Positions 6,161 through 25,175 are shown, counted from the stretch's first letter. The stretch: DNA of 64,000 nt from a bacterium (GCA_019637795.1 JAHBUY010000007.1:150286-214285); one strand, 5' to 3'. Translations and numbers: made by a program. Notes: generated from the letters alone by a model not told the origin.

Positions 6161-6258
6161 CCTCAACCAGGCCGGCACCGGGTGTCGGCCTATTCCGGGA
6201 TCGCGTTCGTCGCCCGTGCGGCGCGCGACGCCCGAAAGTCCGCGGAGGGGAGACGATC

Positions 6259-10863: not shown

Positions 10864-11418
10864 ATGATGCGTCGAGGGGATCACCGATCGTATGCTGCGG
10901 CACTGGTCGGCGCCGGCGCTGCCGCGTTGCTGCTCGCCGGGTGCGTGTTCCAGTCTACTTACAACAACATGCTGCAGCAGCAGGAGGCGATCGAGTCCGC
11001 GCTGCGCTCGGAGATCGCCGCCGATCAGGTCAAGATCGACCAGTTGGAGAACGGCATCCGGGTGCGGATGTCGAATGACCTGCTCTTCCGTGAGGGGGGC
11101 GTCGAGCTGAGCGAGGCGGGTGCGCGCGCCCTGGACAAGGTCGTGCCGCAGCTCAACACCAGTGCGTACATCGTGGACGTGGTCGGCAGCACCGACAACG
11201 TGCCCATCGGTCCCGGGCTGGCCGACCGCTATCCGACCAACTGGGAGCTCGCCGGCGCGCGTGCGGCAGTGGTGGTCCGTCACCTGCAGGCTGGCGGCGT
11301 CGACCCGACCGCGATGCGAGCGGTATCGGACGGCCAGTACCACCCGGTCGCCTCCAACGACACGGCGCAGGGTCGCGCCGACAACCGCAACGTCTCCCTG
11401 CTGCTGCGCCCGCGCTGA
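10864..11418 (+). CDS. OmpA/MotB-family lipoprotein
   Basis: Lipobox LLAGC; GSTDNVPI, YPTNWELA.ARA..VV, N.T..GRA.NRNV. Confidence 0.9.
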   Translation: MMRRGDHRSYAAALVGAGAAALLLAGCVFQSTYNNMLQQQEAIESALRSEIAADQVKIDQLENGIRVRMSNDLLFREGGVELSEAGARALDKVVPQLNTSAYIVDVVGSTDNVPIGPGLADRYPTNWELAGARAAVVVRHLQAGGVDPTAMRAVSDGQYHPVASNDTAQGRADNRNVSLLLRPR

Positions 11419-11556: not shown

Positions 11557-11630
11557 GCCCCCGTAGCTCAGGTGGATAGAGCACAGGATTCCTAATCCTG
11601 GGGTCAGGCGTTCGAGGCGCCTCGGGGGTA
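11557..11630 (+). tRNA. tRNA-Arg(CCT), chimeric at attL (3' half apparently element-derived)
   Basis: Cloverleaf: acceptor GCCCCCG/CGGGGGT, anticodon stem CAGGA/TCCTG with loop TTCCTAA, T-arm AGGCG-TTCGAGG-CGCCT. Confidence 0.9.
11588..11603 (+). repeat. attL core
   Basis: ATTCCTAATCCTGGGG, identical to 23995-24010; spans the anticodon loop. Confidence 0.92.
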
Positions 11631-11670
11631 CGTAAAATCAGCAACTTGCGCCGGCGGCACCCGCGAAATT

Positions 11671-11688
11671 GTTTCCATCTGTTTCCAC
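11671..11688 (+). promoter_or_regulatory. Putative integrase arm-type sites (attL side)
   Basis: GTTTCCATCT GTTTCCAC tandem; related tandem GTTTCCATC at 23874-23893 near attR. Confidence 0.65.
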
Positions 11689-11711
11689 GGGTGCCGCCGG
11701 GTCGCAAGGTC

Positions 11712-12875
11712 TCAGCCTTTGGCCGCGTCGGCGGCGATGCCGTCGAGGCTCGCCAGCGCCGACGGATCGTGCTCGGCGCGCAGCCAGTGCGCGTAGACGC
11801 GACGGGTGACAGAACTGTCCTTGTGGCCACAGAGCGCCGCCACCTCCGTGTCCGCCCGGCCCGCCATGAGCAGCGTCGACGCGAAGGTGTGCCGCAGGGA
11901 GTGCAGCCGCACGCGCTTCACGCCGGCGGCATCGCAGGCCGGGTGCAGCGCCTTGTGGGCAAGCGTGCTGCGATGCACGGGCGTCCCCTCGCTTGACGGG
12001 AACACCCATCCGTCCGCGGTCGGCGGACATGCCAGCTTCCAGCGCCGCAGGGCGGCGACCAATTCGGGGCGGAGCGGGATGCGGCGCTTGCCGGCGCTCG
12101 TCTTGGGCGGCTTGTAGGTCGGCCCGCTGGCCGGCTCGTCGCGCCGATGGGCCCACGTGACGCTGCGCGCGATCCGCACCTCGCCCTTGGTCAAGTCGAT
12201 GTCATCCCAGATGAGCGAGGTCAGCTCCCCTACCCGCCCGCCGGTCAGCACCGCCATGTGCAGGAAGGTCTGGTACATGCCCGGCGTCGCCTGTGCGATG
12301 ACGGTGCGCGCCTGCTCGGCGGACAGCACTGTGGTCGGGTCCACCGCGCCGTCCTCCAACTCGGCTGCCAGCTCGGCGAGCGCCTTGACGGACTTCGCCG
12401 CGACCACGCGCCGGCAGCGCGGCACGACGTCCACCGGGTTGCGGTCGATGTACTCGTGGCGGACGGCATAGTTGAACACGTCGGCTGCGGTGGTCAGGAA
12501 CTTGTTGACCGTCTGCGGCGCCAGCTTCGCCGCCAGCCGATTGCGGCAGAAGGCTTCCAGGTGCCGCACGCGGATCTGGTCGATGCGGTGCTCGCCGAGG
12601 ATCGGCACAAGGTGCAGGTCGAGGTGAACTTGGTAGCCGGCGATGGTCGCCACGCTCACGCGCTCGGCCCGCTCAGCCAGCCAGTCCGCCGCCACTGCCT
12701 TGAAGGTCGGCAGTTGGTCAGGCGCTAAGAAGGTGCCCTTCTGAAGCTGGCTCGTCACCTGCGCCAGGTAGGCGTAGGCAGCCGGCTCATCGGCGCACGG
12801 CTTGATGAAGCGCCGGCCGGTGTCGTCGCGCCAGTCGGCGCACCACTTGCCGCGAACCTGTCGGACCGTTGCCAT
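11712..12875 (-). CDS. int: Tyrosine recombinase/integrase
   Basis: N-terminal arm-binding-like RGKWCADWRD; catalytic set GGRVGEL (R), PPKT (K), HSLRHT (HxxR), GHKD (H), VYAH (Y); AAGGAGG SD. Confidence 0.95.
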   Translation of the reverse strand: MATVRQVRGKWCADWRDDTGRRFIKPCADEPAAYAYLAQVTSQLQKGTFLAPDQLPTFKAVAADWLAERAERVSVATIAGYQVHLDLHLVPILGEHRIDQIRVRHLEAFCRNRLAAKLAPQTVNKFLTTAADVFNYAVRHEYIDRNPVDVVPRCRRVVAAKSVKALAELAAELEDGAVDPTTVLSAEQARTVIAQATPGMYQTFLHMAVLTGGRVGELTSLIWDDIDLTKGEVRIARSVTWAHRRDEPASGPTYKPPKTSAGKRRIPLRPELVAALRRWKLACPPTADGWVFPSSEGTPVHRSTLAHKALHPACDAAGVKRVRLHSLRHTFASTLLMAGRADTEVAALCGHKDSSVTRRVYAHWLRAEHDPSALASLDGIAADAAKG

Positions 12876-12894
12876 GCTCTCCCCTCCTTTGGTG

Positions 12895-13401
12895 TTACCG
12901 TCGCTTGAGCGACTGCATCAGCTCGTTGATGTCGCTCATGACTTCCGCGTGCGCTGGATTGAGGTCCGGGTGGTACTTCTTGGCGAGGCGGCGGTACACC
13001 TCACTGTCGACGCTGGGCGTCTGTCCGCGCCCGCCGAACATCTCGAACAACCGTTCCCGGTTCATGCGATTGGCGCGCTTCTCCATGCGGGCGAGGCGCA
13101 GGTCGAATTGTAGTTGTTTGACCTTTTCGCGGGCGGCGTCGCGCGCGCCCGCGATGGTCTCGACTCGGCGATGCAGAGCACGGATCTCGTCCAGGCGCCG
13201 CTCGAGCTGCGCCCGGAGGGACGCCAGCTCTGCCGCGACGCGCTCCTCGCGGTCGAGAAACTGCGTCAACCACGCCGGCATGGCGAGTACGCCCCGTTCC
13301 CATCGAGCTACCGTATTGGCGGCGACGCCTAGCTCCGCCGCAAGGGCAACCTGGGTTAACGCGCGGCGATGGCGATACTCTCGAAGGGCAGACGGCGTCA
13401 T
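12895..13401 (-). CDS. XRE HTH regulator fused to coiled coil and C-terminal J-domain-like segment
   Basis: LREYRHRRALTQVALAAELGVAANTVARWERG (XRE); C-terminus YRRLAKKYHPDLNP...EVMSDINE (helix II-HPD-helix III). Confidence 0.8.
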   Translation of the reverse strand: MTPSALREYRHRRALTQVALAAELGVAANTVARWERGVLAMPAWLTQFLDREERVAAELASLRAQLERRLDEIRALHRRVETIAGARDAAREKVKQLQFDLRLARMEKRANRMNRERLFEMFGGRGQTPSVDSEVYRRLAKKYHPDLNPAHAEVMSDINELMQSLKRR

Positions 13402-13454
13402 ACGATGGTCGGCTATACCATACGTATGGCGGCGCCGTCTATACCTATCGTATG
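13399..13454. promoter_or_regulatory. AT-richer operator-like cluster upstream of the XRE gene
   Basis: Perfect palindrome CCATACGTATGG (13418-13429), flanking inverted CATACGAT/ATCGTATG, direct repeat CTATACC x2. Confidence 0.55.
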
Positions 13455-13736
13455 CGTGGTGCTGAGCCGGTACACCGTCACCGCCCCCAGCTCCGCCCCG
13501 CAGAGCGCGCAGCCCGCGTCGAGGTCGCCGGGTAGCGGCGCCCCCGGCCGCTCCTGCATGTAGCGGCAGCGCGGCTGCGAGCAGGTGACGCGCGTCCACA
13601 GACTCGCTGCGGCGCAGCGATCCGGCGCAGCCATTGCCGGCCGGGCCGGCGGGTGCGATGCGCCCGCCATGGACTGGACGTATCTGGCGATGGGCGCGGG
13701 CATGATCCTGCTCATGCTGCTGCTGACCTCGCTCAT
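13413..13736 (-). CDS. Hypothetical protein with Cys pairs (possible Zn ribbon)
   Basis: Starts at an ATGA overlap with the upstream ORF; C....C and CALC motifs; competes with an antisense peptide ORF. Confidence 0.4.
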   Translation of the reverse strand: MSEVSSSMSRIMPAPIARYVQSMAGASHPPARPAMAAPDRCAAASLWTRVTCSQPRCRYMQERPGAPLPGDLDAGCALCGAELGAVTVYRLSTTHTIGIDGAAIRMV

Positions 13737-13743
13737 CGACTAG
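13669..13743 (+). CDS. 24-aa hydrophobic peptide (possible type I toxin-like)
   Basis: MDWTYLAMGAGMILLMLLLTSLID*, a single TM-length helix; no clear SD. Confidence 0.35.
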   Translation: MDWTYLAMGAGMILLMLLLTSLID

Positions 13744-13867
13744 CCCACCACCGCACCCGACACCGCGGGCACCGCCCCGGCACCTCCCGCGGCGCGTAGA
13801 GCAGCACCAGGCCGCAGGCGCACGTCACGCGGACGCCGCCAGGGACGAGACGGACGGTGGCCGTCAT
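13733..13867 (-). CDS. 44-aa Zn-ribbon-like protein
   Basis: MTATVRLVPGGVRVTCACGLVLLYAPREVPGRCPRCRVRWWASR; ATGA overlaps at both ends. Confidence 0.55.
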   Translation of the reverse strand: MTATVRLVPGGVRVTCACGLVLLYAPREVPGRCPRCRVRWWASR

Positions 13868-13980
13868 GGCTGCCGGCCCCGGAGGGGCGGACGCCGAGTA
13901 GCCTGCATCACCGGCCGATCACGCGCGACGGCCGTGAGCCCACGCAGGCACCGCCGCGCAACCGCCTCCCGCATCATCAC
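13864..13980 (-). CDS. Small basic hypothetical protein (~38 aa)
   Basis: GTGA overlap with the upstream stop and ATGA overlap with the downstream start. Confidence 0.4.
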   Translation of the reverse strand: MMMREAVARRCLRGLTAVARDRPVMQATRRPPLRGRQP

Positions 13981-14882
13981 GCCGCCGGCACCGCCGCCGT
14001 AGGCTCCGGCTGCGGCGCGCGCTCCAGCTCCTCGCGCGCCCGCACGGCGGCCTCGCGCCGGCGCTGCGCGCGACGCTCCAGCCGCTCCTGCGCGTGGCGG
14101 ATGCCGCTGCCCGGCCCCTCGGCCTCCAGCGCCGGCCCGCTCGGCTTCTCGGCGGTGGTCACGGCGCCGACGTCGTCGACGTCGCCGGTCGCCATCTGGC
14201 CATAGACCTGGCGGATGGTCTCGGCGTCGGCGGCGATGGCGTCGAGCACCTCGAGCACCTCCGCCTGGTCGGCCGGCAGCGGCGTGGCCGTGATCGCCTC
14301 GTGGACGCGCCGACGCACGGGTGCGTACGCCTTGCCGGCGCGGCCGTCGAGCTCGTCGGCCAGCACGCCAAGCAGCCACAGGTTGCGGTCGGCCGCGGCC
14401 TGCTCGACGAGGTGCGTAAGCGTCCGCGCGCTCGCCCGCGACACGCGCTGCAAGGCGGTGAACTGCGTCAGCGTGTTCGCCAGCTCGGCCGCCTGCTGGC
14501 GCTGCTCATGGTGCTGCCGCGCCGCATCGACCTGGAAGTCGGCGAGCCCGTCAACCAACTCGTGCCGGTTGAACGGCTTGACCGCCGGGACCGGGCGAGC
14601 GCGGAGCGCCGCCAGGTACGGGTCGGACAGCGCGGCCCGCTCGGCCTGCAGCGCCTGCGCCCGACTGAGCGCGGCGTCCGCCAGCGGCCGCGCCCGCCTC
14701 ACGGCGTCGCGGCGCGCCTGCGCCTTGCGCCCGGCGCGGTAGTCCGCCTGGTAGGCCGCGACGATGTCGGGGGCATCCATCGCGGCCCGCTCGATCTGCA
14801 ACGCATCCCGCGCGGCGATCATGGCGGTGCGCGTCGTGGCGATCTCGGCCGCGGCCTGCTGGAGTGCTCGGCGATCGATCAT
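13977..14882 (-). CDS. All-helical hypothetical protein (~301 aa)
   Basis: Ala/Arg/Gln-rich helices; ATGA overlap with the upstream ORF fixes the start. Confidence 0.75.
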   Translation of the reverse strand: MIDRRALQQAAAEIATTRTAMIAARDALQIERAAMDAPDIVAAYQADYRAGRKAQARRDAVRRARPLADAALSRAQALQAERAALSDPYLAALRARPVPAVKPFNRHELVDGLADFQVDAARQHHEQRQQAAELANTLTQFTALQRVSRASARTLTHLVEQAAADRNLWLLGVLADELDGRAGKAYAPVRRRVHEAITATPLPADQAEVLEVLDAIAADAETIRQVYGQMATGDVDDVGAVTTAEKPSGPALEAEGPGSGIRHAQERLERRAQRRREAAVRAREELERAPQPEPTAAVPAA

Positions 14883-15115
14883 CGGGCACCCCACTTCCCC
14901 GCCGCACTGCCGCGGGGGCCGAGCCGGCCGTCGACCACGTCGACGGCGCCGCGCCCCGGCGGCGGCGGACTCACGCGCGTCTGCGCGGCGACGGCATCGG
15001 TGCGCTGCGCCCGCGGCCGCACAAGCGCGGCGGCCTCAGCCGGCGTGAAGCCCGGCGATCGCCGCGCCCCACTGCGACGCGCGGCGGCGATGGCGTTGGT
15101 AATCGTGTTCTTCAT
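14879..15115 (-). CDS. Hypothetical protein (78 aa)
   Basis: GGAGG SD then MKNTITNAIAAARR... Confidence 0.6.
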   Translation of the reverse strand: MKNTITNAIAAARRSGARRSPGFTPAEAAALVRPRAQRTDAVAAQTRVSPPPPGRGAVDVVDGRLGPRGSAAGKWGAR

Positions 15116-15173
15116 CTCGAATCCTCCGGTAGTGGCTCGCGTCTCGGCGCCCGCGAGCGATGGCGCATGAAGG

Positions 15174-16604
15174 TCAGCCCCAGAGCACGCGGGAGATACT
15201 GCCGGTGGCGCGGCCACCGTGCGCGATGGCGAGCGCCACCACGTTGGCGACGTCGTCATGGCCGCCCCGCGGATGGTCGACGGAATCGCGGCCGGTGCGT
15301 GACGTGGTGCGCCGCTGGAGCAAACTGAACTGCCGCATCATCCGGTCGGCAGTCACCGAGCGCGCCGGGTCCGGCAACGAGACCCGCCCACCGACCAGCC
15401 ACGGCAACGCGAGTACGTATGCCTCCGAGCGCGTGTGCAGCGTCGGCATCACGCCGAGCCCGACGCGACGCAGCGCATCAACGAGGAACTCTGATGCGTA
15501 CCGGTCCGACCACACGACGCCGACGCCATACGGCCGCAGGAAGTCGCGCAGGCGCTCGACCGCCGCCGCCACCTGAAACGGGGGGCGAGTCTCGAGCAGG
15601 TCGTCGACCACGATCAGCGGCGCCCCATGGCGCGTCTCGCGATGGTAGACGCAGGCCGTGAACGAATCGCCCGCCTGGGTGCCGGACGCGGCGTCGATGG
15701 CCGCGGCGTAGGCGTGCCCCATCGGCGGCCGGCGCACCCGGTCCTGCTCGACGCAGCCCTCGAGCTCGGTCCAGCCAATCAGCCCCTCGATGTCGGCCCG
15801 GAACTCCGCATCCCACTCCGCCCGCGCCGCCGCGGGATCATCGGCGTGCGCCTCGTCGATCACCGTCTGCGCGATCGTCGGGTTCATGCGGCGGGTCGGC
15901 GCCTGCCACGTCAGCACCGGCGAGCCGTCGACGCCGTGGTGGGCGCGATACCAGTCCCAGAGCACCCCACGCCGCGCATACGGCGAGGAGATGCACAGCA
16001 GCAGCGAGCCCGGCACACGCGCCAGCCCCGGCGTCACCGCGCGCACCAGCTCGGCGTCCGGGTTGGCGGCGTCGTCCGTCGGCAAGAACGCGCACTCATC
16101 GATCACCGCGCCGGCCAGCGAATAACCGCGGGTCGAGCGGAAGGACGCGGTGTGAATCTCGATGACACAGCCCGTCGAGAGCGTCAGGCTCTCGCTGGTC
16201 TCGGCGGTGACCAGCCGGTCGAGCATGGGCGATGCGCGCAGGAGCCCGCGCACGTAGCGGAACGCCACCCGCGCCTGGCGGCGGTCGGGACACAAGAGCA
16301 TCGCCGTCGCCAGCTCCCCCGGCCCGAGCACGGGGCGGAAGTCGCGCGAGCAGGCGAGATAGACGATCAGGAACGCGGCGAGCAGCGTCTTGCCCGAGCC
16401 GCGGCCGGCGATCACCATCGCCCGCGATGCCGGCACGGTCGGCGCCGCCGAGCGCCCCGAGCAGGCGCGGTAGATCGCCAGCGCCTCGGCATCGAGCGGC
16501 AACCCGTAGATCGCCGCCACCAACGCCCGAGCAGCAGCGAACGATGGGCCGCCGAAGGTCCGCCCGCACAGGTGCGGGTCGGTCATCCAGTCGAGCGGCG
16601 TCAC
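15174..16604 (-). CDS. terL: Terminase large subunit-like protein
   Basis: Walker A VIAGRGSGKT, Walker B AVIDECAF, ISSP coupling motif, RNase H-like AAIDAASG and HDDVAN. Confidence 0.85.
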   Translation of the reverse strand: MTPLDWMTDPHLCGRTFGGPSFAAARALVAAIYGLPLDAEALAIYRACSGRSAAPTVPASRAMVIAGRGSGKTLLAAFLIVYLACSRDFRPVLGPGELATAMLLCPDRRQARVAFRYVRGLLRASPMLDRLVTAETSESLTLSTGCVIEIHTASFRSTRGYSLAGAVIDECAFLPTDDAANPDAELVRAVTPGLARVPGSLLLCISSPYARRGVLWDWYRAHHGVDGSPVLTWQAPTRRMNPTIAQTVIDEAHADDPAAARAEWDAEFRADIEGLIGWTELEGCVEQDRVRRPPMGHAYAAAIDAASGTQAGDSFTACVYHRETRHGAPLIVVDDLLETRPPFQVAAAVERLRDFLRPYGVGVVWSDRYASEFLVDALRRVGLGVMPTLHTRSEAYVLALPWLVGGRVSLPDPARSVTADRMMRQFSLLQRRTTSRTGRDSVDHPRGGHDDVANVVALAIAHGGRATGSISRVLWG

Positions 16605-16789
16605 GCGGCAGGCCTCCCGCAGGTCGGGCACCGCCACCGCTCGAGCGCCCGATCGAGCGCCCGATCGTCGTCGCGGTCGACGATCACACGGGGATGCCCA
16701 TCGACGCCGCACCACACACCAGCGCGGGCACGCCAGATGCCAGCAGCGGGCGGCACGTCCCGGCAGGGCGGCGCGTCGTGCCAGCTCAT
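16601..16789 (-). CDS. Small hypothetical protein with CPTC motif
   Basis: 62 aa; 4-nt overlaps on both sides. Confidence 0.55.
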   Translation of the reverse strand: MSWHDAPPCRDVPPAAGIWRARAGVWCGVDGHPRVIVDRDDDRALDRALERWRCPTCGRPAA

Positions 16790-17061
16790 GCGCCGTCCTC
16801 GCCAATCGGCGGCACCGGCACGGGGAACACGCCGGCGATCTCCTCGGCGCCGTCGATGTCGACGTAAACCACCGTGACGTGCGACGGCGGCGGGTCGGCG
16901 GGAATGAAGGAGTCGAGGTCGGCGTCGGCGTCGCCAGCCAGCTCGAGGGCGCGCTGCGCCGCCTCGCGCCGGGCGCGCACCTGTGCGGCGATGGCGGCGC
17001 CGAGCGCCTGCGCGGCGTGGCGGTCGGCGGCGGAGGACCAGCGGCGGTGATCGCGGGTCAT
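16786..17061 (-). CDS. Hypothetical protein (91 aa)
   Basis: 4-nt overlaps on both sides. Confidence 0.6.
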   Translation of the reverse strand: MTRDHRRWSSAADRHAAQALGAAIAAQVRARREAAQRALELAGDADADLDSFIPADPPPSHVTVVYVDIDGAEEIAGVFPVPVPPIGEDGA

Positions 17062-17495
17062 CGGATGTCCTCGCCCGCCTGCGGCGATCCTGGGGCCGGG
17101 AAGTCGCTCTGAGTGTTGGCCGCCGCGCGGTGGCGCGCGAGGGCGGCGGTGCCGGCCGCAACCAACGCGGCCCGGTGCTCCTCGCTCAGTCGCCGGCGCC
17201 GGTACGGCCGCAGGATCGCCAGCACGGCGTCGAGGTGGTCGACGTGAAAGACGACGCGCACCTCAGCGTCGCCCAGCGCCCGCTCGACGAACGGCAGCGC
17301 CCGCAGATGCACCCCGATGCGCGGCCGGTCGGTCCACGCGAACAGCCGCTCGCCGCCCTGGGCGCCGACGTAGCCATGCCGGCAGGCGATGCGAGCGAGC
17401 CAGGGGCGGTCAGCGACGGGCCAGTCGGCGGCCTGCGGCTCGAAGACGATGCGGTAGCGGCGGCTATACCGGGCGGATAGGTCGATGCAGGTCAT
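17058..17495 (-). CDS. Hypothetical phage-type protein (145 aa)
   Basis: Globular composition; 4-nt overlaps on both sides. Confidence 0.7.
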   Translation of the reverse strand: MTCIDLSARYSRRYRIVFEPQAADWPVADRPWLARIACRHGYVGAQGGERLFAWTDRPRIGVHLRALPFVERALGDAEVRVVFHVDHLDAVLAILRPYRRRRLSEEHRAALVAAGTAALARHRAAANTQSDFPAPGSPQAGEDIR

Positions 17496-18010
17496 GCGGG
17501 ATCGTCTCCTGTGGTGTCGGCGGACACCTCGGCGTCGACCACGGCCGCCTCGGCCGGCGGCGCCGCCTCGGCCGGCGCGGCAGCGGTCGTGGCGCGGTCG
17601 CGCAGGTAGGCGTCGAGCGACGGCAGGTCGGCAGCGCGGTCCGGGCGCAGGCCGAGCGCCTGCAGCATCCGCGAAAGCGACTGAACGTGCGTCACGTAGC
17701 CGCGGCGCAAGATCGGCAGCAGCTCGCCAGCCGCGTCAACCAGGCGGTCGGCCTGGAACACATGCCCCTCGATGGTCGAGCAGATGAGCGCCGCCGCGGC
17801 GCAGCGGTCGACCAGCAAGCGCTCACGCGCTGTCAGCCGGTCGTAGCCGCCGGCATCGGCGGCGAGGTCCTGGCGCAGCTCGGCGAGCGCCCGAGCAATC
17901 CAGGTCCGCTGGTCGAGACTGCCGGCGGCGAGGTGGCGGGCGAGCGAGCGGGCGCCGTGTTTCGGCGGCGTGCCGGCGCGTCGGCGCATAGGCACCGGGC
18001 GGCTAGCCAT
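17492..18010 (-). CDS. Terminase small subunit-like protein
   Basis: N-terminal KHG and C-terminal LGL.P motif typical of P27-like TerS; upstream of terL in the same operon. Confidence 0.55.
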   Translation of the reverse strand: MASRPVPMRRRAGTPPKHGARSLARHLAAGSLDQRTWIARALAELRQDLAADAGGYDRLTARERLLVDRCAAAALICSTIEGHVFQADRLVDAAGELLPILRRGYVTHVQSLSRMLQALGLRPDRAADLPSLDAYLRDRATTAAAPAEAAPPAEAAVVDAEVSADTTGDDPA

Positions 18011-18431
18011 GGCGGATCACCGCCTGAAATCCCGTACCCCTGCCCAGCGTCTCGGTGGAAACAGATGGAAACGGACCCGCGCCGTTGCTGGATTTTTCGG
18101 CGGTCGCAGGACTGCCCATCCTGTGGTCCGCCTCGAGCGCTGCGCGCACGGCGCCGCGATCGAAGCGCCAGTACTTGCCGCAGCGCCGCGCCGGCAGCCG
18201 ACCAGCACGCGCCTGCGCGCGGAACCACGTCACCGGCAAGTGGAACTCGGCGGCCAGCTCATCGGCGGTCGCGAAGGCGGTGCGCGATGGCGGCACATCG
18301 GCTGGCGCGGTCATCGCCGCGACCAACTGCACCTGCGCGCCGGCGAGGGCAGCCACGGCGGCGGCCCGATCGGTCGCGGACAGCTCGGCGCAGGCACGAT
18401 CCAGCGTCCGGCGCAGCTCCTCGAGCGTCAT
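18003..18431 (-). CDS. Excisionase-like (HTH_17/MerR-type) DNA-binding protein
   Basis: FATADELAAEFHLPVTWFRAQARAGRLPARRCGKYWRFDRGAV winged-helix Xis signature. Confidence 0.75.
   Translation of the reverse strand: MTLEELRRTLDRACAELSATDRAAAVAALAGAQVQLVAAMTAPADVPPSRTAFATADELAAEFHLPVTWFRAQARAGRLPARRCGKYWRFDRGAVRAALEADHRMGSPATAEKSSNGAGPFPSVSTETLGRGTGFQAVIRHG
18055..18072 (-). repeat. Internal inverted exact copy of the attL arm-type 18-mer
   Basis: GTGGAAACAGATGGAAAC is the reverse complement of 11671-11688. Confidence 0.85.
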
Positions 18432-18527
18432 CGGCGGCCCCGGGGCGCAATCTGTGAAGCATTGCCGGCGGCGGAGGTGCCGGTCGCGGGGGGAATCATC
18501 ATGCCCCATCCCCTACAGCCGACCCCA

Positions 18528-18668
18528 GACGGATACGGCGTATCTGTCTCGCCGGTCCGACCCAGGCTCAGACCAGGCTCACCAGGCTCACGGTCCATAT
18601 GTCTCTCGCGCGCGCGCGCGCTATGCGGGTAAACGGACGGAGAGCCTGATAAGCCTGCTTGGGCCTGG
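18528..18668. promoter_or_regulatory. Putative replication origin of the element
   Basis: CCAGGCTCA x3 (18562, 18573, 18582), a (CG)7 run at 18607-18621, three inverted degenerate copies (GAGCCTG, AAGCCTG, GGCCTGG); directly downstream of the D5 helicase gene. Confidence 0.65.
18533..18543. promoter_or_regulatory. ATAC-GGC-GTAT palindromic site, copy 1 of 4
   Basis: Identical 11-mers at 20154, 20979, 22870; here the arms extend to GACGGATAC/GTATCTGTC. Confidence 0.7.
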
Positions 18669-18687
18669 CGGTGGGTCATTTGGGCCG

Positions 18688-20100
18688 TCATTCCTGTTCT
18701 TGGGCTGCCGCTCGCAGCCGAACACCGACGCGAAACCGGACGCCACCGATCTTCTCGGCGTGGATGCCGAGCCGGTGCAGCTCGTCGCCGAAGTCGCGCT
18801 TCTTGAGCGCGTCGTGCCTCAGCTCGGCGACGTAGGCATCGAACAGCACCTTGAACGGCGTGCGTGCTCGCGGGTCGCGCTCGCAGTACTCGTCGACCCA
18901 CTGCCCGACAGCGTCCATCTCGGCGCGGTAGGCGGCGGTGGCGGCGCGGACGATCTCGGGCGGGCGCAGGCCGTCGGCGTACCAGGCGATGGCGCCGTCG
19001 ATGATCCAACGGAGGATGCCGGGCAGCTCGTCGGTGAGCGAGGCGGCGAAGTCGCGGACCAGATTGGTCTGCAGCCGCTCCTCGAGGTTGACGACGAAGG
19101 GCACCAGATGGATGCGGCGCCAGATGGCGGGGTCGGTGCCGCGGACGTCGGGCTTGTGATTCCCCGCCAGCCAGAACGTGTGCGTCGGCGCGAACTCGAA
19201 GAAGTCCTGCCGCATGTACCGCGCCTTCAACTGGTCGCCGCCGGTGAGCCACTTGACCTTCGTTTCGGCCAGCCCGCGACCCTGCTCGGTCTCGATGGCC
19301 GAGACCAGGCGGGCGCCCATCAAGTCGGCGATCTCGGTCGGGTGCGCGTCGTGCTTGGTCGCCATCAACAGCGACGGGGCGGCGGTGCGGGCGTAGTCGC
19401 CGAGTGCGGCATGGAGCAGCGACAGGAAGGTCGACTTGCCGTTTGCGCCGCTGCCCCACAAGAACAGCAAGCACTGCTCGCGGACCGACCCCGTGGCGCT
19501 GTAGCCGGCGGCGCGCTGCAGGAAGTCGATCAGCGCCGTGTTGTCGAAGGTCAGCGTCAAGAACTCCATGAACCGTGGACAGGTCGCGTCCGGGTCATAG
19601 GCGACTGGCGTGCGGCGGCTGATGAGGTCCTCGCGGCGGTGCGGGCGCAGCTCGCCAGTGCGGAGGTCGACGGTGCCGTTCTCGCAGGTCAGCAACCACG
19701 GGTCGCGATCGAAGGCGTCGGGCGGGAGCGCCACGCGCCGATCGGCAGCGGCGAGCGCCAACATCGCCTCCAGCCGGTTGCGCTTGCCGGACGCAAGGAA
19801 GTGTTGCGCCAGGATGGCCCGCTCCTCGGGCGAGCCAGCGGCGCCCACCTCGGCCCACCACTGCGCGATGGTGGTGGTCGCCAGCGCCATCGTCGCGGCC
19901 GTAGCATCGGGCTGCCAGCGTCCCTCCGTCCAGACGTGCCAGCCGGCGCCGCGGTGCGCGTAGCGCAGCGTGTCGGCGTGCGCGTCGATGAACGCCTCGG
20001 CGTTGGCGACGTCGGTGGTGCGCCACTTGGCGTCGCGGATGGCAGCGGGGTTGGGTAGATCGCTCGCGCCGAAGAGGTCTACGATCTTCCCGCGGCTCAT
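18688..20100 (-). CDS. P4/D5-family SF3 helicase (phage/plasmid primase family C-terminal part)
   Basis: D5_N region (TDVANAEAF...W), Walker A GSGANGKST, KWLTGGD, GNHKP, WRRIHLVPF. Confidence 0.9.
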   Translation of the reverse strand: MSRGKIVDLFGASDLPNPAAIRDAKWRTTDVANAEAFIDAHADTLRYAHRGAGWHVWTEGRWQPDATAATMALATTTIAQWWAEVGAAGSPEERAILAQHFLASGKRNRLEAMLALAAADRRVALPPDAFDRDPWLLTCENGTVDLRTGELRPHRREDLISRRTPVAYDPDATCPRFMEFLTLTFDNTALIDFLQRAAGYSATGSVREQCLLFLWGSGANGKSTFLSLLHAALGDYARTAAPSLLMATKHDAHPTEIADLMGARLVSAIETEQGRGLAETKVKWLTGGDQLKARYMRQDFFEFAPTHTFWLAGNHKPDVRGTDPAIWRRIHLVPFVVNLEERLQTNLVRDFAASLTDELPGILRWIIDGAIAWYADGLRPPEIVRAATAAYRAEMDAVGQWVDEYCERDPRARTPFKVLFDAYVAELRHDALKKRDFGDELHRLGIHAEKIGGVRFRVGVRLRAAAQEQE

Positions 20101-21008
20101 CGGGGCGCATCCTGGGCTGTCATGCGGCGCACCGTACCGGCCGTGCGTGCCGGATACGGCGTATGTGTCCGCTGCCCTGACCCGGCATCGTAGGATTCGA
20201 CGCTGGCCAAGATGGCGTTGACTTCGCGTTTCCCCAGCGGCTTGTCGCAGCGTTCCGTGTTCGCGGTGTGGACGGACGCGCAGAGCAGCTTCCACTCCAC
20301 CTTCCGCGCCCGCATCGACGCCGCGTAGCGGAACAGCGTGTCGTTGCGCTCGCCCTTGCCGATCGTGTCCGGCAGCCGGAACGGGTCGCCGTGCTCGCCG
20401 CGGAGCTCGTCGAGGTGGCGAATCGCCGCGACCCAGAGCGGCGGCAGCTCGGGCAACGGGAGGTCGGCGGCCGAGTAGCCGATCAAGTAGGCGTAGCCGC
20501 GGCAGGGCGGCGGAAAGACCAGGCTGTTGTCGCCGCGGATGTCGACACCGGCACCCAGCTTGGCGACCGAATTGCGAATCCCGCCGGGCGCCTGGAAGTA
20601 TCGGTGCTCGCCGTGGTGCGGGGTCGTGACCGTTGGCGCATCCGGTAGCGGGCCGTAGCGCTGTTCCAGGTCGTGGAGTGTGTCGCAGCCGTCGACGCCG
20701 TGTTTGCGGTCGGCGTCGAGGATCAGCAGGCGATCGGTGGTGAGGAGCGCGCAGTCGGCATCGGGAAACCGCTGCCACCAGCGGTCTAGTTGGTCGAGGT
20801 CATCGCTCGCCCGCTGGTGGCCAACACCAGTCGGCCCGATGCAGGTCCAGCGTGTGCCCGGCCGCATCGGCACCACGCGCGTGTGCCAGTGCGCGATGTA
20901 CCACTGTGCGGCGCGCAGGCCGCGCGGCGTCTGTTGTGGCGGCGTCATGAGCGGCGGTGTACGTGGCGCCGCGCCCACATACGGCGTATCCGTCCCCGGC
21001 GTCATCAT
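20097..21008 (-). CDS. Bifunctional DNA primase/polymerase (Prim-Pol + PriCT)
   Basis: LLILDAD, VTTP..G.H.YF, GVDIRG, PriCT-like GERNDTLFRYA. Confidence 0.85.
   Translation of the reverse strand: MMTPGTDTPYVGAAPRTPPLMTPPQQTPRGLRAAQWYIAHWHTRVVPMRPGTRWTCIGPTGVGHQRASDDLDQLDRWWQRFPDADCALLTTDRLLILDADRKHGVDGCDTLHDLEQRYGPLPDAPTVTTPHHGEHRYFQAPGGIRNSVAKLGAGVDIRGDNSLVFPPPCRGYAYLIGYSAADLPLPELPPLWVAAIRHLDELRGEHGDPFRLPDTIGKGERNDTLFRYAASMRARKVEWKLLCASVHTANTERCDKPLGKREVNAILASVESYDAGSGQRTHTPYPARTAGTVRRMTAQDAPR
20154..20164. promoter_or_regulatory. ATAC-GGC-GTAT site, copy 2
   Basis: About 55 nt upstream of the D5 helicase start. Confidence 0.65.
20979..20989. promoter_or_regulatory. ATAC-GGC-GTAT site, copy 3
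   Basis: At the 5' end of the Prim-Pol gene. Confidence 0.65.
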
Positions 21009-22645
21009 CCGGCCACCGTTCGTGCTGCTGTCGACTGCCAGCCGCGGCCGGCGACGATGCGGCGCACCTGTCGGCGGGTGAGCGCATCGGCCGCGGCGCC
21101 CTTGCTCATGCCCGGCACGTAGCCCGCACGTAGCGCCGCGCGTTGCCCATCGCTGGCAGGTTGGCTGCGCCAGCGCGCATCCGCCCGGGCGATGCGCCAG
21201 CGTGCCGGGTCGGCGCGCAGCAGCTCCTCCGCGACGCCCTGTGCCAGCTCGAGCGACGGCACGGCGCGATGCACGGTTTCGACGGTCCGCGTCTCTCGTG
21301 ATTGCCACAGCACGTCGACCGTCCCGTCCGCCTCGGTCGACAGGATCACCACGCCATCGCCCATCGACACGGCGTAACTGCCATCGACCGTCAGCCAGGC
21401 GATGCGACTGTCGCGCGGCGCGAAGAGCGCCACCTCGCGCGCGGTCAGTGCCGCGGCCCGTCCCTGCTCCGCTGCCTCCCGTGCTGCGGCCTGGGCCGCG
21501 TCTGCGGCGAGCACGCCATCGGCCAGCGCCGCCGCCGGCGTCTCGAACAGTACGGCGGCCGTCATCAGGTCATGGGTGCCTGTCGCGCCGACGCAATCGA
21601 GTACCAGGCAGTCCGCCTTTGCCGGGTGCTTCCGCGCGCCGCGCCCGAGCATCTGCTGATAGAGCACGGGGCTGCGCGTCGGACGGGCGATGCAGACGCA
21701 ATCCACGCGCGGAAGGTCGACGCCTTCCGTGGCGACGCCGACGTTGACCAGCACGGGCAGCTCGCCGGCGCGCACCGCCGCGAACAGTGCGGCCCGCTCG
21801 TCGGTAGGGGTGGCGCCCGTAACCAGCGCGGCGTGCAGTCCGCGCCCCCGGCACGCATCGACGGTTGCCTCGGCCACCGCGATCGTCGGCGCGAACACCA
21901 GCGAGACGCGGCCCGATGCGTGCTCGGCCAGTGCGGTGGCGATGTGTACCGGCGCGTCGGCGCCGCTCAGCGCCTCGCCGAGCGCCCCTTGCGCGTAGTC
22001 GCCATCGACGCGCGGTAGGCTGGCGAGGTCGACCGCCAGCGCAATCTGCAGCCCGCGGAAGTCGCACAGGTAGCCCTGGCGGATCAGCTCGATCAGCGAG
22101 GTCTGATACACGATCTCCTGATACGTCGGCGCCAGGCCGCGCCCGTCGGCGCGTGTCAGCGTGGCGGACACGCCGAGGAGCTGCGGCGCGTCGGCCCCAT
22201 CGTCGAGCGCCCCGACGCCGGCGAGCACCGTCTGGTAGCTCTGCGCGGCGCTGTGGTGCGCTTCGTCCACCACGACGAGCGAAAAACGGCCGGCGGCGCC
22301 GATCTGCTCGAGCCGGCGCGGCTGCCGCAGCGTCGGGACGCTGCCGACGATCACGGCGGCGTCAGGCGTGTTGTGGTCGGCGCGGACGATGCCGATGGCG
22401 CGGGCATCGCCGAGCACATAGCCGATCGTCGCGGCGGCCTGGTCGATCAGCTCCTCGCGGTGCGCGAGCACCAGCGCCCGGTCGCCGCGTCGGACATGCT
22501 CGGCGACCAAATGACCAAACGTGACCGTCTTGCCGCCGCCGGTCGGGATTTGGATTGCCGCACGGCGGATACCGCGGAGCGCCGCGGCGCCGATCGCCGC
22601 GAGCGCATCCCGTTGGTAGGGGCGCAGCGCGATTCCCGCGCTCAT
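21005..22645 (-). CDS. SF2 DEAD/DEAH-box helicase
   Basis: LRPYQ, PTGGGKT, DEAHH, SAT, EGVDLP, QMLGRGAR. Confidence 0.92.
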   Translation of the reverse strand: MSAGIALRPYQRDALAAIGAAALRGIRRAAIQIPTGGGKTVTFGHLVAEHVRRGDRALVLAHREELIDQAAATIGYVLGDARAIGIVRADHNTPDAAVIVGSVPTLRQPRRLEQIGAAGRFSLVVVDEAHHSAAQSYQTVLAGVGALDDGADAPQLLGVSATLTRADGRGLAPTYQEIVYQTSLIELIRQGYLCDFRGLQIALAVDLASLPRVDGDYAQGALGEALSGADAPVHIATALAEHASGRVSLVFAPTIAVAEATVDACRGRGLHAALVTGATPTDERAALFAAVRAGELPVLVNVGVATEGVDLPRVDCVCIARPTRSPVLYQQMLGRGARKHPAKADCLVLDCVGATGTHDLMTAAVLFETPAAALADGVLAADAAQAAAREAAEQGRAAALTAREVALFAPRDSRIAWLTVDGSYAVSMGDGVVILSTEADGTVDVLWQSRETRTVETVHRAVPSLELAQGVAEELLRADPARWRIARADARWRSQPASDGQRAALRAGYVPGMSKGAAADALTRRQVRRIVAGRGWQSTAARTVAG

Positions 22646-22848
22646 GTGGCGTCGTTCCGTCGCTGATGTCGCGGCGGCTCGAGGAGCTGATGCGCCTCGA
22701 CAAAGAACTGTTCGAGGTCCTTCCGTAGGGCGCGCTCCGCCCGCTCGCGGGCGACGGAGCGCGACCAGGCGCGCAGGAGCGCGCGGAGGGCCGGGTTGCG
22801 GGACCGACGGAGCGCCGATGGCAGTGCGGGTGTCGTCATGCGCCGCAT
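22642..22848 (-). CDS. Small basic hypothetical protein (68 aa)
   Basis: ATGA overlap with the helicase start. Confidence 0.55.
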   Translation of the reverse strand: MRRMTTPALPSALRRSRNPALRALLRAWSRSVARERAERALRKDLEQFFVEAHQLLEPPRHQRRNDAT

Positions 22849-22869
22849 GGTAGGCGGCGCAGATGACTG

Positions 22870-22880
22870 ATACGGCGTAT
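22870..22880. promoter_or_regulatory. ATAC-GGC-GTAT site, copy 4
   Basis: Intergenic, upstream of the replication operon. Confidence 0.7.
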
Positions 22881-22890
22881 TCGTCGCGCG

Positions 22891-23721
22891 CTACTTCTGC
22901 GCGACCTTCAGGGCCTTCCGCACGGACGCAAATTGCAGGATCACGCGCCGCGCACCGCCGCGCGCGGCCTCCGTGTATTCCACGGTGATGGTCCGCGCCT
23001 CGCGGTCCACGTCGACTTCGGTAGCGAGCGGTAGGAGGTTGCCGTCCATCAGGGCCAACGCATCCTCGACGGTGTCCGGGTCGCCGAGCACCTTTAGGAA
23101 CCCCTTCCATGTCTGCGGTTGGGTCGCCGCCCACACGCGACGAAAGAGCACTGTGTGTGGCTGCTTGGGTTTCCCTTTGCCCGCACGGCCGGCGGCGCTA
23201 TTTTGAGTCCGTATTTTCGTGCGGTCTGCCACCACTTTCCGCCGCGCCTCCGCGTCGCCGACGATGTAGAGCGCTTGCTCGCCGAGCCACCGGTCGATGA
23301 TTGCGCGCTCCGATTGGTCGTCGGCCGTCATGGTGAGCAGCCCGTGCATCATGTCGCCGGACCAGTCGGGGTGCCCGCCCGTGGCGTGCAGGCGTTTCCA
23401 GGCCGCTCTATACGTGCGGTCGAGTTCCTTCTGTCGCTCGCGCACGTCGGTATCGCTCTCGCCGGGACGCCGGGCGCGCTCAATGGCCGCCTCAGCCGCG
23501 ATTACCGCGCAGAGTGCTACCGCCGTAACCCGCCGTCGCTGCGCCGTCGCTCTATACGTCTCGGCGTCTCGCTGGCGCGGTGTGCCGTCGCGGTTCCAGG
23601 TCGACTCCGCCATCAGGCGCCGTCGCACCTCGTCGAGGATGACGGCGCGGAACGGATCCTGTCGCGATTCCTTCGCCGGCGGCGTTGCCCCCGGCTTCCG
23701 CGTCGTGCGTGTCGCCATCAT
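22891..23721 (-). CDS. Hypothetical protein (276 aa), first gene of the element
   Basis: Long ORF with protein-like composition; basic C-terminal region. Confidence 0.7.
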   Translation of the reverse strand: MMATRTTRKPGATPPAKESRQDPFRAVILDEVRRRLMAESTWNRDGTPRQRDAETYRATAQRRRVTAVALCAVIAAEAAIERARRPGESDTDVRERQKELDRTYRAAWKRLHATGGHPDWSGDMMHGLLTMTADDQSERAIIDRWLGEQALYIVGDAEARRKVVADRTKIRTQNSAAGRAGKGKPKQPHTVLFRRVWAATQPQTWKGFLKVLGDPDTVEDALALMDGNLLPLATEVDVDREARTITVEYTEAARGGARRVILQFASVRKALKVAQK

Positions 23722-23873
23722 CCACCACCCGTTCGTGGGACCCGATCTACTGTTGCACCGCCGCCGGCGGGGCGCTCGGGTCTGCGCCGTTCGGTGGCCG
23801 ACCTAGCCGGCGGCGGTATGGCTATGGCTACGCTACCAACTCGATTCCCGGCGAAGAAAGAGGCGCACGGCGT

Positions 23874-23893
23874 GTTTCCATCGTGTTTCCATC
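23874..23893 (+). promoter_or_regulatory. Putative integrase arm-type sites (attR side)
   Basis: GTTTCCATC-GT-GTTTCCATC, about 100 bp inside the attR core. Confidence 0.65.
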
Positions 23894-23994
23894 ACGGTGC
23901 GTCCACACCGCACGGTGCGTCAGCCGGTCCGCGAAAACGCTGAGGCTTCCGACGTATCGGACGCACGGCGCGGCGAGCCTCATGACTTGACCGC

Positions 23995-24037
23995 ATTCCT
24001 AATCCTGGGGCCGTGCGTTCGAATCGCGCCGGGGGCA
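23995..24037 (+). repeat. attR: core plus displaced 3' half of tRNA-Arg(CCT)
   Basis: Core followed by CC-GTGCG-TTCGAAT-CGCGC-CGGGGGC-A; CGGGGGC pairs perfectly with the 5' GCCCCCG at 11557. Confidence 0.92.
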
Positions 24038-24106
24038 TTCACCTTCCAGTTGCGCACCAATCGCTGGTGCCCGATCCGCGGCCCCGGGGCGTTCCGCGGC
24101 AGTGGC

Positions 24107-24520
24107 TCAGACGGCGAGGGCGGCGGCGGCGCGCTCGTAGTCTTCGGGTTTGACGTAGATGACGTAGCCGAAGGTGCCGCGGCCGTCGGCGACGCCGCTG
24201 CAGGCGTAGACGTTGACGTTCGCCTCGAAGATCCGGGCGTGGATCCTGGCGAGCGCGCCGAGCTCGTCGTCGCCCTGTACCAGCAGCGCCGGGTGCGGGC
24301 CGTCCAGGACCAGTCCAGCTTTGCGCGCCGCATCCTCCATGCGCAGCGGATCATCCGGGAAGAGCGTGAGCTGGGCCCGTAACGGCCCCACCGGCATGGC
24401 GGTGAAGGCGACCAGATTGAGCCCGAGATCGGCGAGCTGCGACAGCAGCTTGTACGCTTCGCCCGGCCGATCCTGCACCGTCGTGGTGAAGTACTCGACT
24501 CGCCGGATGTTGAAGGCCAT
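24107..24520 (-). CDS. ACT-domain protein
   Basis: VQDRPGEAYKLL..L...GLNL; second ACT-like D..GALARI...I..ANVNV. Confidence 0.8.
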   Translation of the reverse strand: MAFNIRRVEYFTTTVQDRPGEAYKLLSQLADLGLNLVAFTAMPVGPLRAQLTLFPDDPLRMEDAARKAGLVLDGPHPALLVQGDDELGALARIHARIFEANVNVYACSGVADGRGTFGYVIYVKPEDYERAAAALAV

Positions 24521-24814
24521 GACCACCTCCCTCCTCGGCGCCTCGCCTCCGCCGCCTGCGCCTGTCGGGTCGGTAGCAGCGCCTCGCGGTCGCGAGAAGC
24601 CCCGTGGCCCGCTGCCCCCCGCGCGATGGAGACCGCAGTGGTCGCTGCCGCCGCCGCGAGAGACGGGACGGAATTCCCGGGTCTACTCCCGCCCGCCCCC
24701 GCCCCATCGACATAGCGGAAATCAGCGTGTTAGAGGGCGCTGCGCCAAGCGTGAGCGCGGCGACCGGGACGGCCGATCAGTCGAACCGCGAGTCCGATTC
24801 AGGGAGGAGTCGGG

Positions 24815-25156
24815 ATGCTCTATCTGCTGCTCAACTGGGTGCTGAGCGCGTTGTGCCTGCTGATCGTTACCAAGGTCGTGCCGGGATTCGAGATCGCGAG
24901 CTTCGGCACGGCGCTGGTGGCGGCGCTGGTGATCGGCTTGTTCAACGCCACCATCGGGCTGGTGTTGAAGATCGTCACTCTCCCGCTCACCATCGTCACG
25001 CTCGGGCTGTTCCTGTTCATCGTCAATGCCTTCGTGCTCTGGCTGGCGGCGCAGGTGGTGAAGGGCTTCGCCATCACCAGTTTCGGATCGGCGCTGCTGG
25101 CAGCGATCGTCCTGGCGCTCGTGCACCTGCTGCTGCGCCGCCTCGCGTTCGCCTGA
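24815..25156 (+). CDS. YvlD/4-TMS 'phage holin' family membrane protein
   Basis: Four hydrophobic helices, ALVIGLFNA.I..VL...TLPL...TLGLF...VNA. Confidence 0.85.
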   Translation: MLYLLLNWVLSALCLLIVTKVVPGFEIASFGTALVAALVIGLFNATIGLVLKIVTLPLTIVTLGLFLFIVNAFVLWLAAQVVKGFAITSFGSALLAAIVLALVHLLLRRLAFA

Positions 25157-25175
25157 CGGGCAGCGCGCCCGCCAG

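Follow-up and report, generated by a model that had tools for sequence, protein, structure and literature searches.

An inverted pair of arm-type repeats at the head of the terminase genes in a tRNA-Arg island: a putative second site for the integrase

The island and the repeat pair within it

The stretch of DNA considered here, called the window below (64,000 nucleotides; GCA_019637795.1 JAHBUY010000007.1:150286-214285), belongs to a wastewater-type metagenome genome and contains a 12.4 kb mobile island in a tRNA-Arg gene. The island is bounded by the identity block ATTCCTAATCCTGGGG, and every one of its genes lies on the minus strand. A tandem repeat found near both attachment (att) ends of this island occurs a third time, inverted, directly ahead of a gene for a small-terminase-like protein (terS), and this internal copy is the subject of the present analysis. 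A sequence-only reading of the window had drawn attention to it as a possible binding site for the element's own integrase (Int), at which Int might regulate the packaging operon, loop the DNA to couple excision with packaging, or mark a pac site. The features on which the argument turns are these.

11557-11631, plus strand: tRNA-Arg(CCT), identified with ARAGORN; the integration target, its 3′ half island-derived
11584-11600: real core in the anticodon stem-loop, CAGGAttcctaaTCCTG, that is CAGGA-ttcctaa-TCCTG, two inverted core-type half-sites around a 7-nt overlap
11588-11603 and 23996-24011, plus strand: attL/attR identity block, from sequence comparison
11634-11645, plus strand: A-rich element AAAATCAGCAAC, between the core and the P′ pair, echoed at 18084-18096
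11671-11688, plus strand: P′ arm tandem pair GTTTCCAtctGTTTCCA(c), spaced by 10 bp; the core is 70 nt away
11712-12875, minus strand: tyrosine integrase, 387 amino acids (Pfam Phage_integrase 1.4e-23, phrog_1 1.5e-66)
15174-16805, minus strand: TerL, large terminase (Terminase_6N 3e-5, phrog_2 3.9e-20), probable start at 16586
17492-18010, minus strand: TerS-like protein, predicted to have an HK97/P27-type small terminase fold, directly upstream of the TerL region
18003-18509, minus strand: helix-turn-helix protein of the HTH_17 (MerR/excisionase-type) family (Pfam HTH_17 9e-6, phrog_1840 excisionase)
18055-18072, minus strand: internal arm-type pair, identical to the P′ pair but inverted; the terS ATG (18010) follows after 45 nt
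18084-18096, minus strand: A-tract element (g)AAAAATCCAGCAAC, separating pseudo-core and internal pair
18107-18123: pseudo-core CAGGActgcccaTCCTG, that is CAGGA-ctgccca-TCCTG, half-sites as in the real core, spacer unrelated
23874-23893, plus strand: P arm tandem pair GTTTCCATCgtGTTTCCATC, spaced by 11 bp; the attR core is about 103 nt away
23893-23903 and 23911-23921, plus strand: direct repeat CACGGTGCGTC, two copies with an 18-bp period, between the P pair and the attR core
23996-24011, plus strand: attR core copy; beyond it lies the 3′ half that the tRNA gene had originally, now displaced

The 18-mer GTTTCCATCTGTTTCCAC is present exactly twice in the window, at 11671-11688 (+) and at 18055-18072 (-), and no further match occurs there at up to 3 mismatches (expected 0.02). 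The left copy lies 68 bp from the end of the identity block (11603), and near the other end GTTTCCATC stands in tandem at 23874-23882 and 23885-23893, 103 bp from the attR block (23996). These positions agree with what the sequence-only reading had reported, as do the distance to the ATG, the location within the 3′ tail of the HTH_17 open reading frame (ORF) and the presence of a nearby echo, in which AAAATCCAGCAAC at 18084-18096 (-), including the A-tract, recalls the A-rich element beside the real core. The motif is also infrequent, as judged from the window, the sole host sequence examined: of 8 copies of the heptamer GTTTCCA, 7 fall inside the island (expected 1.56), and an unbiased scan for tandem 7-mers at 9-12 bp spacing returned GTTTCCA at exactly the P′, internal and P places. 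Around the target, the anticodon-stem region of the tRNA (11583-11628) is repeated at 23990-24035 (46 nt, 80% identity).

The internal site is 6.4 kb from attL and 5.8 kb from attR, well away from the real att region, and it consists of more than the repeat pair. Read along the strand of the genes, a core-like inverted repeat (18123-18107) is followed by the A-tract (18096-18084), which probably bends the DNA intrinsically or binds a nucleoid protein, and then by the two arm sites (18072-18055); read on the opposite strand, the order from pair to core is the same as that of the real P′ arm. It had been claimed that no att core is visible at the equivalent distance. This holds at 70 nt, the distance from core to pair at the real site, but a core-like CAGGA-N7-TCCTG is found 34 nt from the internal pair. 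Only 2 matches to CAGGA-N7-TCCTG exist in the window, this pseudo-core and the anticodon stem of the tRNA (expected 0.06). The internal site thus resembles a real core in its half-site geometry, with two inverted core-type half-sites and a spacer within 6-8 bp, and differs from it in the identity of the overlap, which is ttcctaa at the real site and ctgccca/tgggcag at the internal one. The arm spacing at P′ and at the internal site is 10 bp rather than 11. The 41-amino-acid tail of the HTH_17 protein that is encoded over this composite site has a GC content at third codon positions of 0.68, compared with 0.85 in the body of the gene, uses the rare codons AGG, CCT, AGT and TTT, and is not conserved in protein sequence. 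The composition of this tail together with its lack of conservation as protein indicates that the constraint acts on the DNA. A terminator-like hairpin at 18070-18086 on the plus strand is antisense to the genes and was disregarded.

The repeats and the internal site in related elements

The repeats GTTTCCA(T/C)C had been proposed to be arm-type sites for Int, and on bioinformatic grounds we accept this, because they flank the core on both arms, because equivalent repeats occur at the 3′ end of int throughout the family, and because their sequence tracks the N-terminal domain of Int. These statements are based on 80 loci encoding related integrases, which were fetched for comparison. A tandem (T/C)GGNNNC pair, nearly always with 11-bp spacing, is present in about 60 of the 80. 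Relative to the int stop codon it lies between about -120 and +250 nt, and in many cases it is fixed at -48 or -57. At least six hexamer classes can be distinguished (GGTAGC, GGACAC, GGGCAC, GGTCAC, GGTGAC and GGAAAC), the window belonging to the last. Wherever both ends of an element are visible (the window, L002, L004, L007 and L024), pairs are found on both arms in direct orientation. The integrase of the window has an N-terminal extension of the arm-binding type (residues 1-56) ahead of its SAM-like domain, and in the integrase alignment A2 residues R214, K258, H325, R328, H351 and Y361 are invariant. To compare N-terminal domains, 45 non-redundant integrases were used, with catalytic-domain identity held fixed in bins of 40-45%, 45-50% and 50-60%. 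Within these bins the N-domain identity of integrases sharing a hexamer class was 0.47, 0.59 and 0.56, respectively, against 0.31, 0.34 and 0.38 for integrases of different classes, whereas the core-binding domain showed little or no such difference. Residues specific to a class follow a conserved G.RR motif, for example RRWES for GGTAGC and RR(R/F)I(E/K) for GGAAAC. Two further features of the family may be recorded here. In many of the loci L012-L091 the P′ pair overlies the final 48-57 nt of the int ORF, its offset being fixed, and integrases of the GGGCAC class have a Cys-rich insertion (CxxxxCxC) in the N-terminal domain. As a by-product, the comparison yields a specificity table of N-domain signatures against arm hexamers that helps the annotation of att sites in metagenomes.

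If the repeats were bound not by Int but by the winged-helix HTH_17 protein, a head-to-tail polymer of this protein might autoregulate at the 3′ end of its own gene. Binding to direct repeats that are spaced by one turn of DNA, with regulation of transcription, is known for MerR-like winged helix-turn-helix proteins (RdfS, BldC and Xis; PMC11963761), and the HTH_17 family is the usual neighbour of int. Indeed, HTH_17 homologues are located directly upstream of int in most related loci, so that the protein is the probable directionality factor. Several observations argue against it as the ligand of the repeats. Repeats on both att arms characterise Int arm sites and are atypical of directionality factors, and the hexamer class follows the N-domain of Int. 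The HTH region of the HTH_17 proteins does not follow it, with 49% identity between L002 and L004, which have the same hexamer, and 54% between L002 and L005, which do not. Within the island the CACGGTGCGTC repeat is confined to the P arm and missing from the internal site; since a position on the P arm only is expected for sites of an excision directionality factor, its two copies are candidates for such sites and better ones than the arm-type repeats. Finally, in L024 the internal pair lies far from the HTH_17 gene, and for this reason we associate the site with terS and not with the xis-like gene. We give little credence to HTH_17 as the binder.

Six independent elements possess a TerS-like gene. 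A perfect inverted pair was found at the 5′ end of terS in five of the six and a degenerate one in the sixth (L007), and the internal pairs comprise three different hexamers. The elements are listed with the internal pair as read in brackets.

Window: pairs of GTTTCCA at P′, internal (inverted; GTTTCCA) and P
L002/L003: target tRNA-Leu(CAG); GGTAGCA at 6289 and 16269/16280; inverted pair (TGCTACC) 9902-9919, about 85 nt before terS
L004: target the 3′ end of a sigma-54 activator gene; GGTAGCA at 6176 and 15054; inverted pair (TGCTACC) 9848-9866
L005/L006: GGTGACC at the int end; inverted pair (GGTCACC) 209-226, before terS
L024: target tRNA-Leu(TAG); terS the first gene after the P arm; inverted pair (TGCTACC) 2257-2275, inside the 5′ end of terS
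L007/L008: target tRNA-Arg(ACG); degenerate inverted pair GGTAGC/GGTCGC, spacing 12, at the 5′ end of terS

Absence of the internal copy from homologous elements would have counted against the sequence-only reading; the copy is present in them, inverted, and varies together with the arm sites of the element. Among about 40 related loci in which an HTH_17 gene precedes int and terS is missing, a perfect inverted pair was detected in L023 only and a degenerate one in L086.

The pseudo-core also changes together with the real core. The arrangement CAGGA-N7-TCCTG is shared by L002, L003 and L023, and in L002 and L023, whose tRNA targets have a CAGGA/TCCTG stem, it is located 43-44 nt from the internal pair. 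In L024 the real core is CTAGAtcctaagTCTAG (CTAGA-N7-TCTAG) and the pseudo-core, 44 nt from the pair, is CTAGAtcgggacTCTCG (CTAGA-N7-TCTCG), one mismatch from the element's own real core. Further, the spacing is retained. In the window, core and pair are separated by 70 nt at the real site and by 34 nt at the internal one; in the other three elements the gaps are 80-82 and 43-44 nt, respectively, so that the window gaps are about 9-10 nt shorter at both sites and the difference between real and internal gaps is constant at 36-38 nt in all four. A tract of A5-7 is found 22-46 nt upstream of the internal pair at 7/7 sites, in genomes of 65-70% GC. The internal site cannot be described as a copy of P′ specifically; the L002 pair equals the P pair, and those of L004 and L024 equal neither arm. 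The likeness to P′ is one of geometry only.

These data bear on the possibility that the internal site is a functionless relic of a duplication and inversion of the attP region, its repeats being identical by chance or through gene conversion. Recent copying could account for the 18/18 identity with P′ in the window and the 19/19 identity with P in L002. However, the site persists alongside integrases that are only 39-45% identical, with three hexamers and two pseudo-cores that match those of their own elements, it is present in 6/6 terS elements as against 1-2 of about 40 other loci, and the A-tract and the phasing are conserved as well. A relic is already disfavoured by this evidence, and we regard it as very improbable.

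A second alternative is that the site is active in recombination, serving for multimer resolution between two internal sites or for occasional inversion of the segment from terS to int. The full core-like geometry, with two half-sites, a 7-nt spacer and arm sites, is what an active site would have, and the orientation is always inverted relative to the att arms. Overlap mismatch blocks productive exchange in tyrosine recombinases, though, and in every element the spacer matches the real overlap at 0-4 of 7 positions, as counted by eye (for example, tcctgaa at the real site and tagtcaa at the internal site of L002, tcctaag and tcgggac in L024). Nor would a second site be needed for resolution of multimers, which attP x attP could already achieve. 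Public sequencing runs, used as Logan assembled contigs, provide an additional test. Contigs from two DNA runs are collinear with the window across 17924-25368 and 11576-13499, with the island integrated and the internal site collinear, and no inversion joint between 11.7 and 18.07 kb is listed in the assembled contigs of the public runs. The joints that are listed have sides of 20-25 nt; these were considered as rearrangements and read as assembly or mapping noise among sister elements. Taken together, this makes recombination at the internal site quite unlikely. The idea that the spacer imitates a second tRNA anticodon loop, and hence an alternative attB, was also rejected, since positions 33 and 37 are unfit in any element. 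Concerning the real att sites, contigs of the public runs break at 11576-11586 (X1, X2) and at 11574-11603 and 23995-24024 (X5). These breaks fall exactly at the att core, even though the stretch shared by the two cores does not reach the word length of the assembler, which suggests that alternative junctions (an empty site or the excised form) coexist in the sampled populations.

The third alternative concerns packaging. In HK97-like systems cos or pac is located just upstream of terS, and at cosB of lambda the integration host factor (IHF) is employed as an architectural factor. By analogy, the composite site might lie in or beside a cos or pac sequence, where Int, together with the bent A-tract, would shape the DNA or gate the loading of terminase and would not serve to regulate transcription. 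The association with the 5′ end of terS and not with the HTH_17 gene, as seen in L024, would fit such a role, as would the predicted HK97 small-terminase fold of the TerS-like protein, and a position that varies and even falls inside an ORF is no problem for a signal read at the DNA level. Against this, L023 has the site without terS, no sequence between the internal pair and terS is conserved across elements, and no role of Int in packaging is known. No pile-up of molecule ends is reported for the assembled contigs of the public runs. A packaging signal is in our estimation an unlikely explanation.

Two of the terS-bearing relatives, L004 and L005, integrate at the 3′ end of a gene for a sigma-54-dependent activator, with an att repeat of 26 bp (6043-6068 and 15127-15152 in L004, about 8090-8120 in L005); their integrases are 50% identical in the catalytic domain. 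L057 was set aside as evidence in either direction on account of its complexity, with an inverted pair 9 kb upstream of int and two att-like copies. The features concerned are at 869-887, 11150-11168 and 12158-12176, a tRNA-SeC gene is at 12230-12325, the att-like segments are nearly identical and 1 kb apart, and the upstream inverted pair is close to a ParB-methyltransferase gene and a different TerS-like gene on the opposite strand. L057 may be a tandem or composite element.

A proposed role for integrase at the boundary of the early and late genes

Our best reading of these observations is that the internal site is a compact mimic of one half of attP, dead in recombination and placed at the boundary between the early and late genes. 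The co-variation of the arm hexamer, of the pseudo-core half-sites and of the spacing with the real site points to half an att site that was copied for a purpose and has been retained in elements whose integrases are only about 40% identical. The boundary itself is marked by a palindrome, GATACGnCGTATC, which is repeated among the early genes and missing from the late module. We would put the probability that the internal copy is a functional binding site for Int at roughly 0.8. That Int bound there controls the late module seems somewhat better than an even bet.

The proposed mechanism is as follows. The composite would correspond to the half of attP that runs from the core to the P′ arm, shortened and inverted. 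The N-terminal domain of Int would occupy the arm sites while the core-binding and catalytic domains occupied the half-sites across the A-tract bend, and the composite would in this way supply what a heterobivalent Int needs, namely two half-sites, a bend and two arm sites. With a 7-nt spacer that bears no relation to the real overlap, the composite would not be expected to complete strand exchange with attB, attP, attL or attR. Placed at the 5′ end of the genes that run from terS through terL to int, the bound Int could serve as a repressor or be a roadblock. Alternatively, it might anchor a loop to the real P′ arm and core 6.4 kb away, enclosing exactly the segment from terS to int, and an Int-bridged loop is attractive because the site is always inverted and at the other end of that segment. 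In either case the outcome would be feedback on an operon that ends in int, and expression of the packaging genes would be linked to the state of recombination.

A number of findings weigh against this interpretation. Gaps of 280-380 bp occur between terL and int in the window, so that int may have a promoter of its own, and no sigma-70-like promoter was found at 17800-18700, although the consensus may not be that of the host. L007 has only a degenerate pair, of a kind that with one mismatch arises by chance about once per 15-20 kb on a rough count, and no pseudo-core resembling its own core. L023 carries the composite site without a terS gene downstream. The pseudo-core matches in L004 and L005 (ACAAACTCG.GAA and ATTCCAAG) are short and disagree in orientation, and with a rough chance expectation of about 0.04-0.1 each they are suggestive only. 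Relative to the start of terS the site has no set position; in L004 it is about 150 nt upstream, whereas in L024 and L007 it falls inside the ORF. A roadblock or a loop would therefore fit better than a classical operator. Lastly, the depth of the runs labelled metatranscriptomes is flat across the flanks, like that of DNA, with no transcript structure.

Comparison with known systems sheds some light on what is familiar in this arrangement. As in attP sites of the lambda type, inverted half-sites surround a 7-bp spacer, a bend element is present and tandem arm sites follow 35-45 bp away; a separate N-terminal arm-binding domain would make the integrase heterobivalent, and pairs flank the real core on both arms. 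The internal copy departs from the lambda-type plan in its location, which is away from the recombination locus, ahead of the terminase genes and 6 kb into the element. It differs also in having a spacer unlike the overlap and an A-tract in place of an IHF site; no IHF site was identified. Autoregulation by integrase is known, for example for the Int of P4. At PintS of KplE1, where IntS and TorI act, and at attP of ICEMlSymR7A, the integrase IntS represses its own promoter through sites embedded in att (PMC2951348 and PMC11963761, respectively). In these three systems Int bound to arm- and core-type sites acts as a repressor and so ties int expression to the state of recombination, and the promoter happens to overlap the real att site because transcription of int leads away from att. 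In the island, by contrast, transcription of int runs towards att, and in many relatives the 3′ end of the gene overlaps P′; the additional site is ectopic and upstream of an operon. Feedback through a promoter that overlaps att is consequently unavailable, and a further copy of the site, placed ahead of the operon, would reopen this route.

Pseudo-att sites of tyrosine integrases likewise resemble core half-sites and have divergent overlaps, but they are chance chromosomal sequences without arm sites, whereas the site described here is within the element, has an arm pair and a bend, and is conserved. The internal activation sequence of phage Mu is a transpositional enhancer that overlaps operators, and the Mu recombinase is a DDE transposase. 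It is comparable in being an internal site far from the ends, contacted by a dedicated N-terminal domain of the recombinase and situated in a region of transcriptional control. It differs in stimulating assembly of the transposition complex, a stimulation for which there would be no need here. By gene content alone the island may be likened to satellites such as the phage-inducible chromosomal islands (PICI), their capsid-forming relatives (cfPICI) and P4-like elements (SatelliteFinder survey, PMC10085698), being a tRNA island of 9-12 kb with int, an excisionase-type HTH gene, primase and helicase genes and terminase genes, and with no capsid, portal or tail genes recognised; it differs in encoding both TerS and TerL without recognisable capsid genes.

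In full-text literature searches we did not find a description of an ectopic, recombination-dead att site serving as a long-range regulator. Arm-type sites and autoregulation by Int are already known; what would be new is a conserved ectopic mimic of half an att site that is tied to the terminase genes. Integrases are usually regarded as recombinases that act only at att, and the known cases in which they act as regulators derive from a promoter overlapping att. If Int binds the internal site, the expression of the packaging machinery could be coupled to excision and integration in a simple manner. A stronger version, which we offer as tentative and on balance doubtful, holds that these islands copied half of attP, disabled its overlap and inverted it, so as to obtain an Int sensor that bridges to the real att site and loops the operon, the packaging genes being switched on only in a defined recombination state. 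If att mimics of this kind do act as operators or loop anchors, they could be searched for in other islands.

Other genes of the island and minor observations

The remaining genes are listed here.

12895-13599, minus strand: XRE-type HTH protein, weakly DnaJ-like at its C-terminus; the start is probably at 13401
13977-14894, minus strand: unknown protein of 305 amino acids in the late module, no family match
17058-17495, minus strand: unknown protein of 145 amino acids
18688-20100, minus strand: D5_N / DUF5906 primase-helicase (D5_N 9.7e-32, phrog_2478 8e-119)
20097-21008, minus strand: Prim-Pol + PriCT_1 primase-polymerase
21005-22645, minus strand: ResIII/DEAD helicase, whose start may be further upstream
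22891-23721, minus strand: unknown protein of 276 amino acids, the first island gene on the attR side

The designation TerS-like derives from gene position, homologues and a fold match. The protein has 22 homologues, and terS precedes terL in all contexts seen. No Pfam or PHROG match was obtained for the protein, with the exception of one family member at E=0.017. Its AlphaFold model is of medium confidence (predicted local distance difference test score 72.7), and the best matches in the PDB are HK97 small terminases (8pop_B, probability 0.99; 6z6e, template modelling score 0.63), the probabilities of 0.99 and 0.97 being accompanied by weak E-values of 0.26-2. The L002 orthologue of TerL matches TerL_ATPase and TerL_nuclease. 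A scan of genomes with TerL gave one distant Rhodovulum match only, and the TerS alignment A1 gave no match in the metagenome scan or the viral scan. The viral scan with Int retrieved only integrases of 23-30% identity, and these were not used.

Three more TerS-like paralogues are encoded in the same genome (P0002, P0003 and P0022, with 89%, 79% and 44% identity), and the three sister elements (KF840_05925, KF840_23070 and KF840_21680) are not inside the 64-kb window. The C-terminus ...AVVDAEVSADTTGDDPA is identical in all the TerS-like paralogues of the genome, which points to several mosaic sister islands that exchange segments. Breaks in the public-run contigs and a raised depth at 13.5-17.9 kb agree with such islands.

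A palindrome, GATACGnCGTATC, occurs four times in the window, only within the island (18532-18544, 20153-20165, 20978-20990 and 22869-22881; expected 0.05), each copy sitting in a repeat of about 50 nt (18498-18548, 20119-20169, 20944-20994 and 22835-22885). The copies are at or near junctions of the early genes (HTH_17, D5 primase-helicase, Prim-Pol and helicase), and the late module is without them; GATACGnCGTATC is probably the operator of some regulator of the early module. In two of the relatives, at least three copies of CGGAACA with 11-12 bp spacing are found in a 117-amino-acid ORF of the replication module (L007 3144-3240, L008 9107-9200); they resemble iterons and may mark an origin. 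In L023 a near-consensus sigma-70 promoter (TTGACA-17-TATAAA, 826-852) precedes a 68-amino-acid ORF and int. It lies about 270 bp downstream of the composite site of that locus, with an opposite-strand Zn-ribbon ORF in between.

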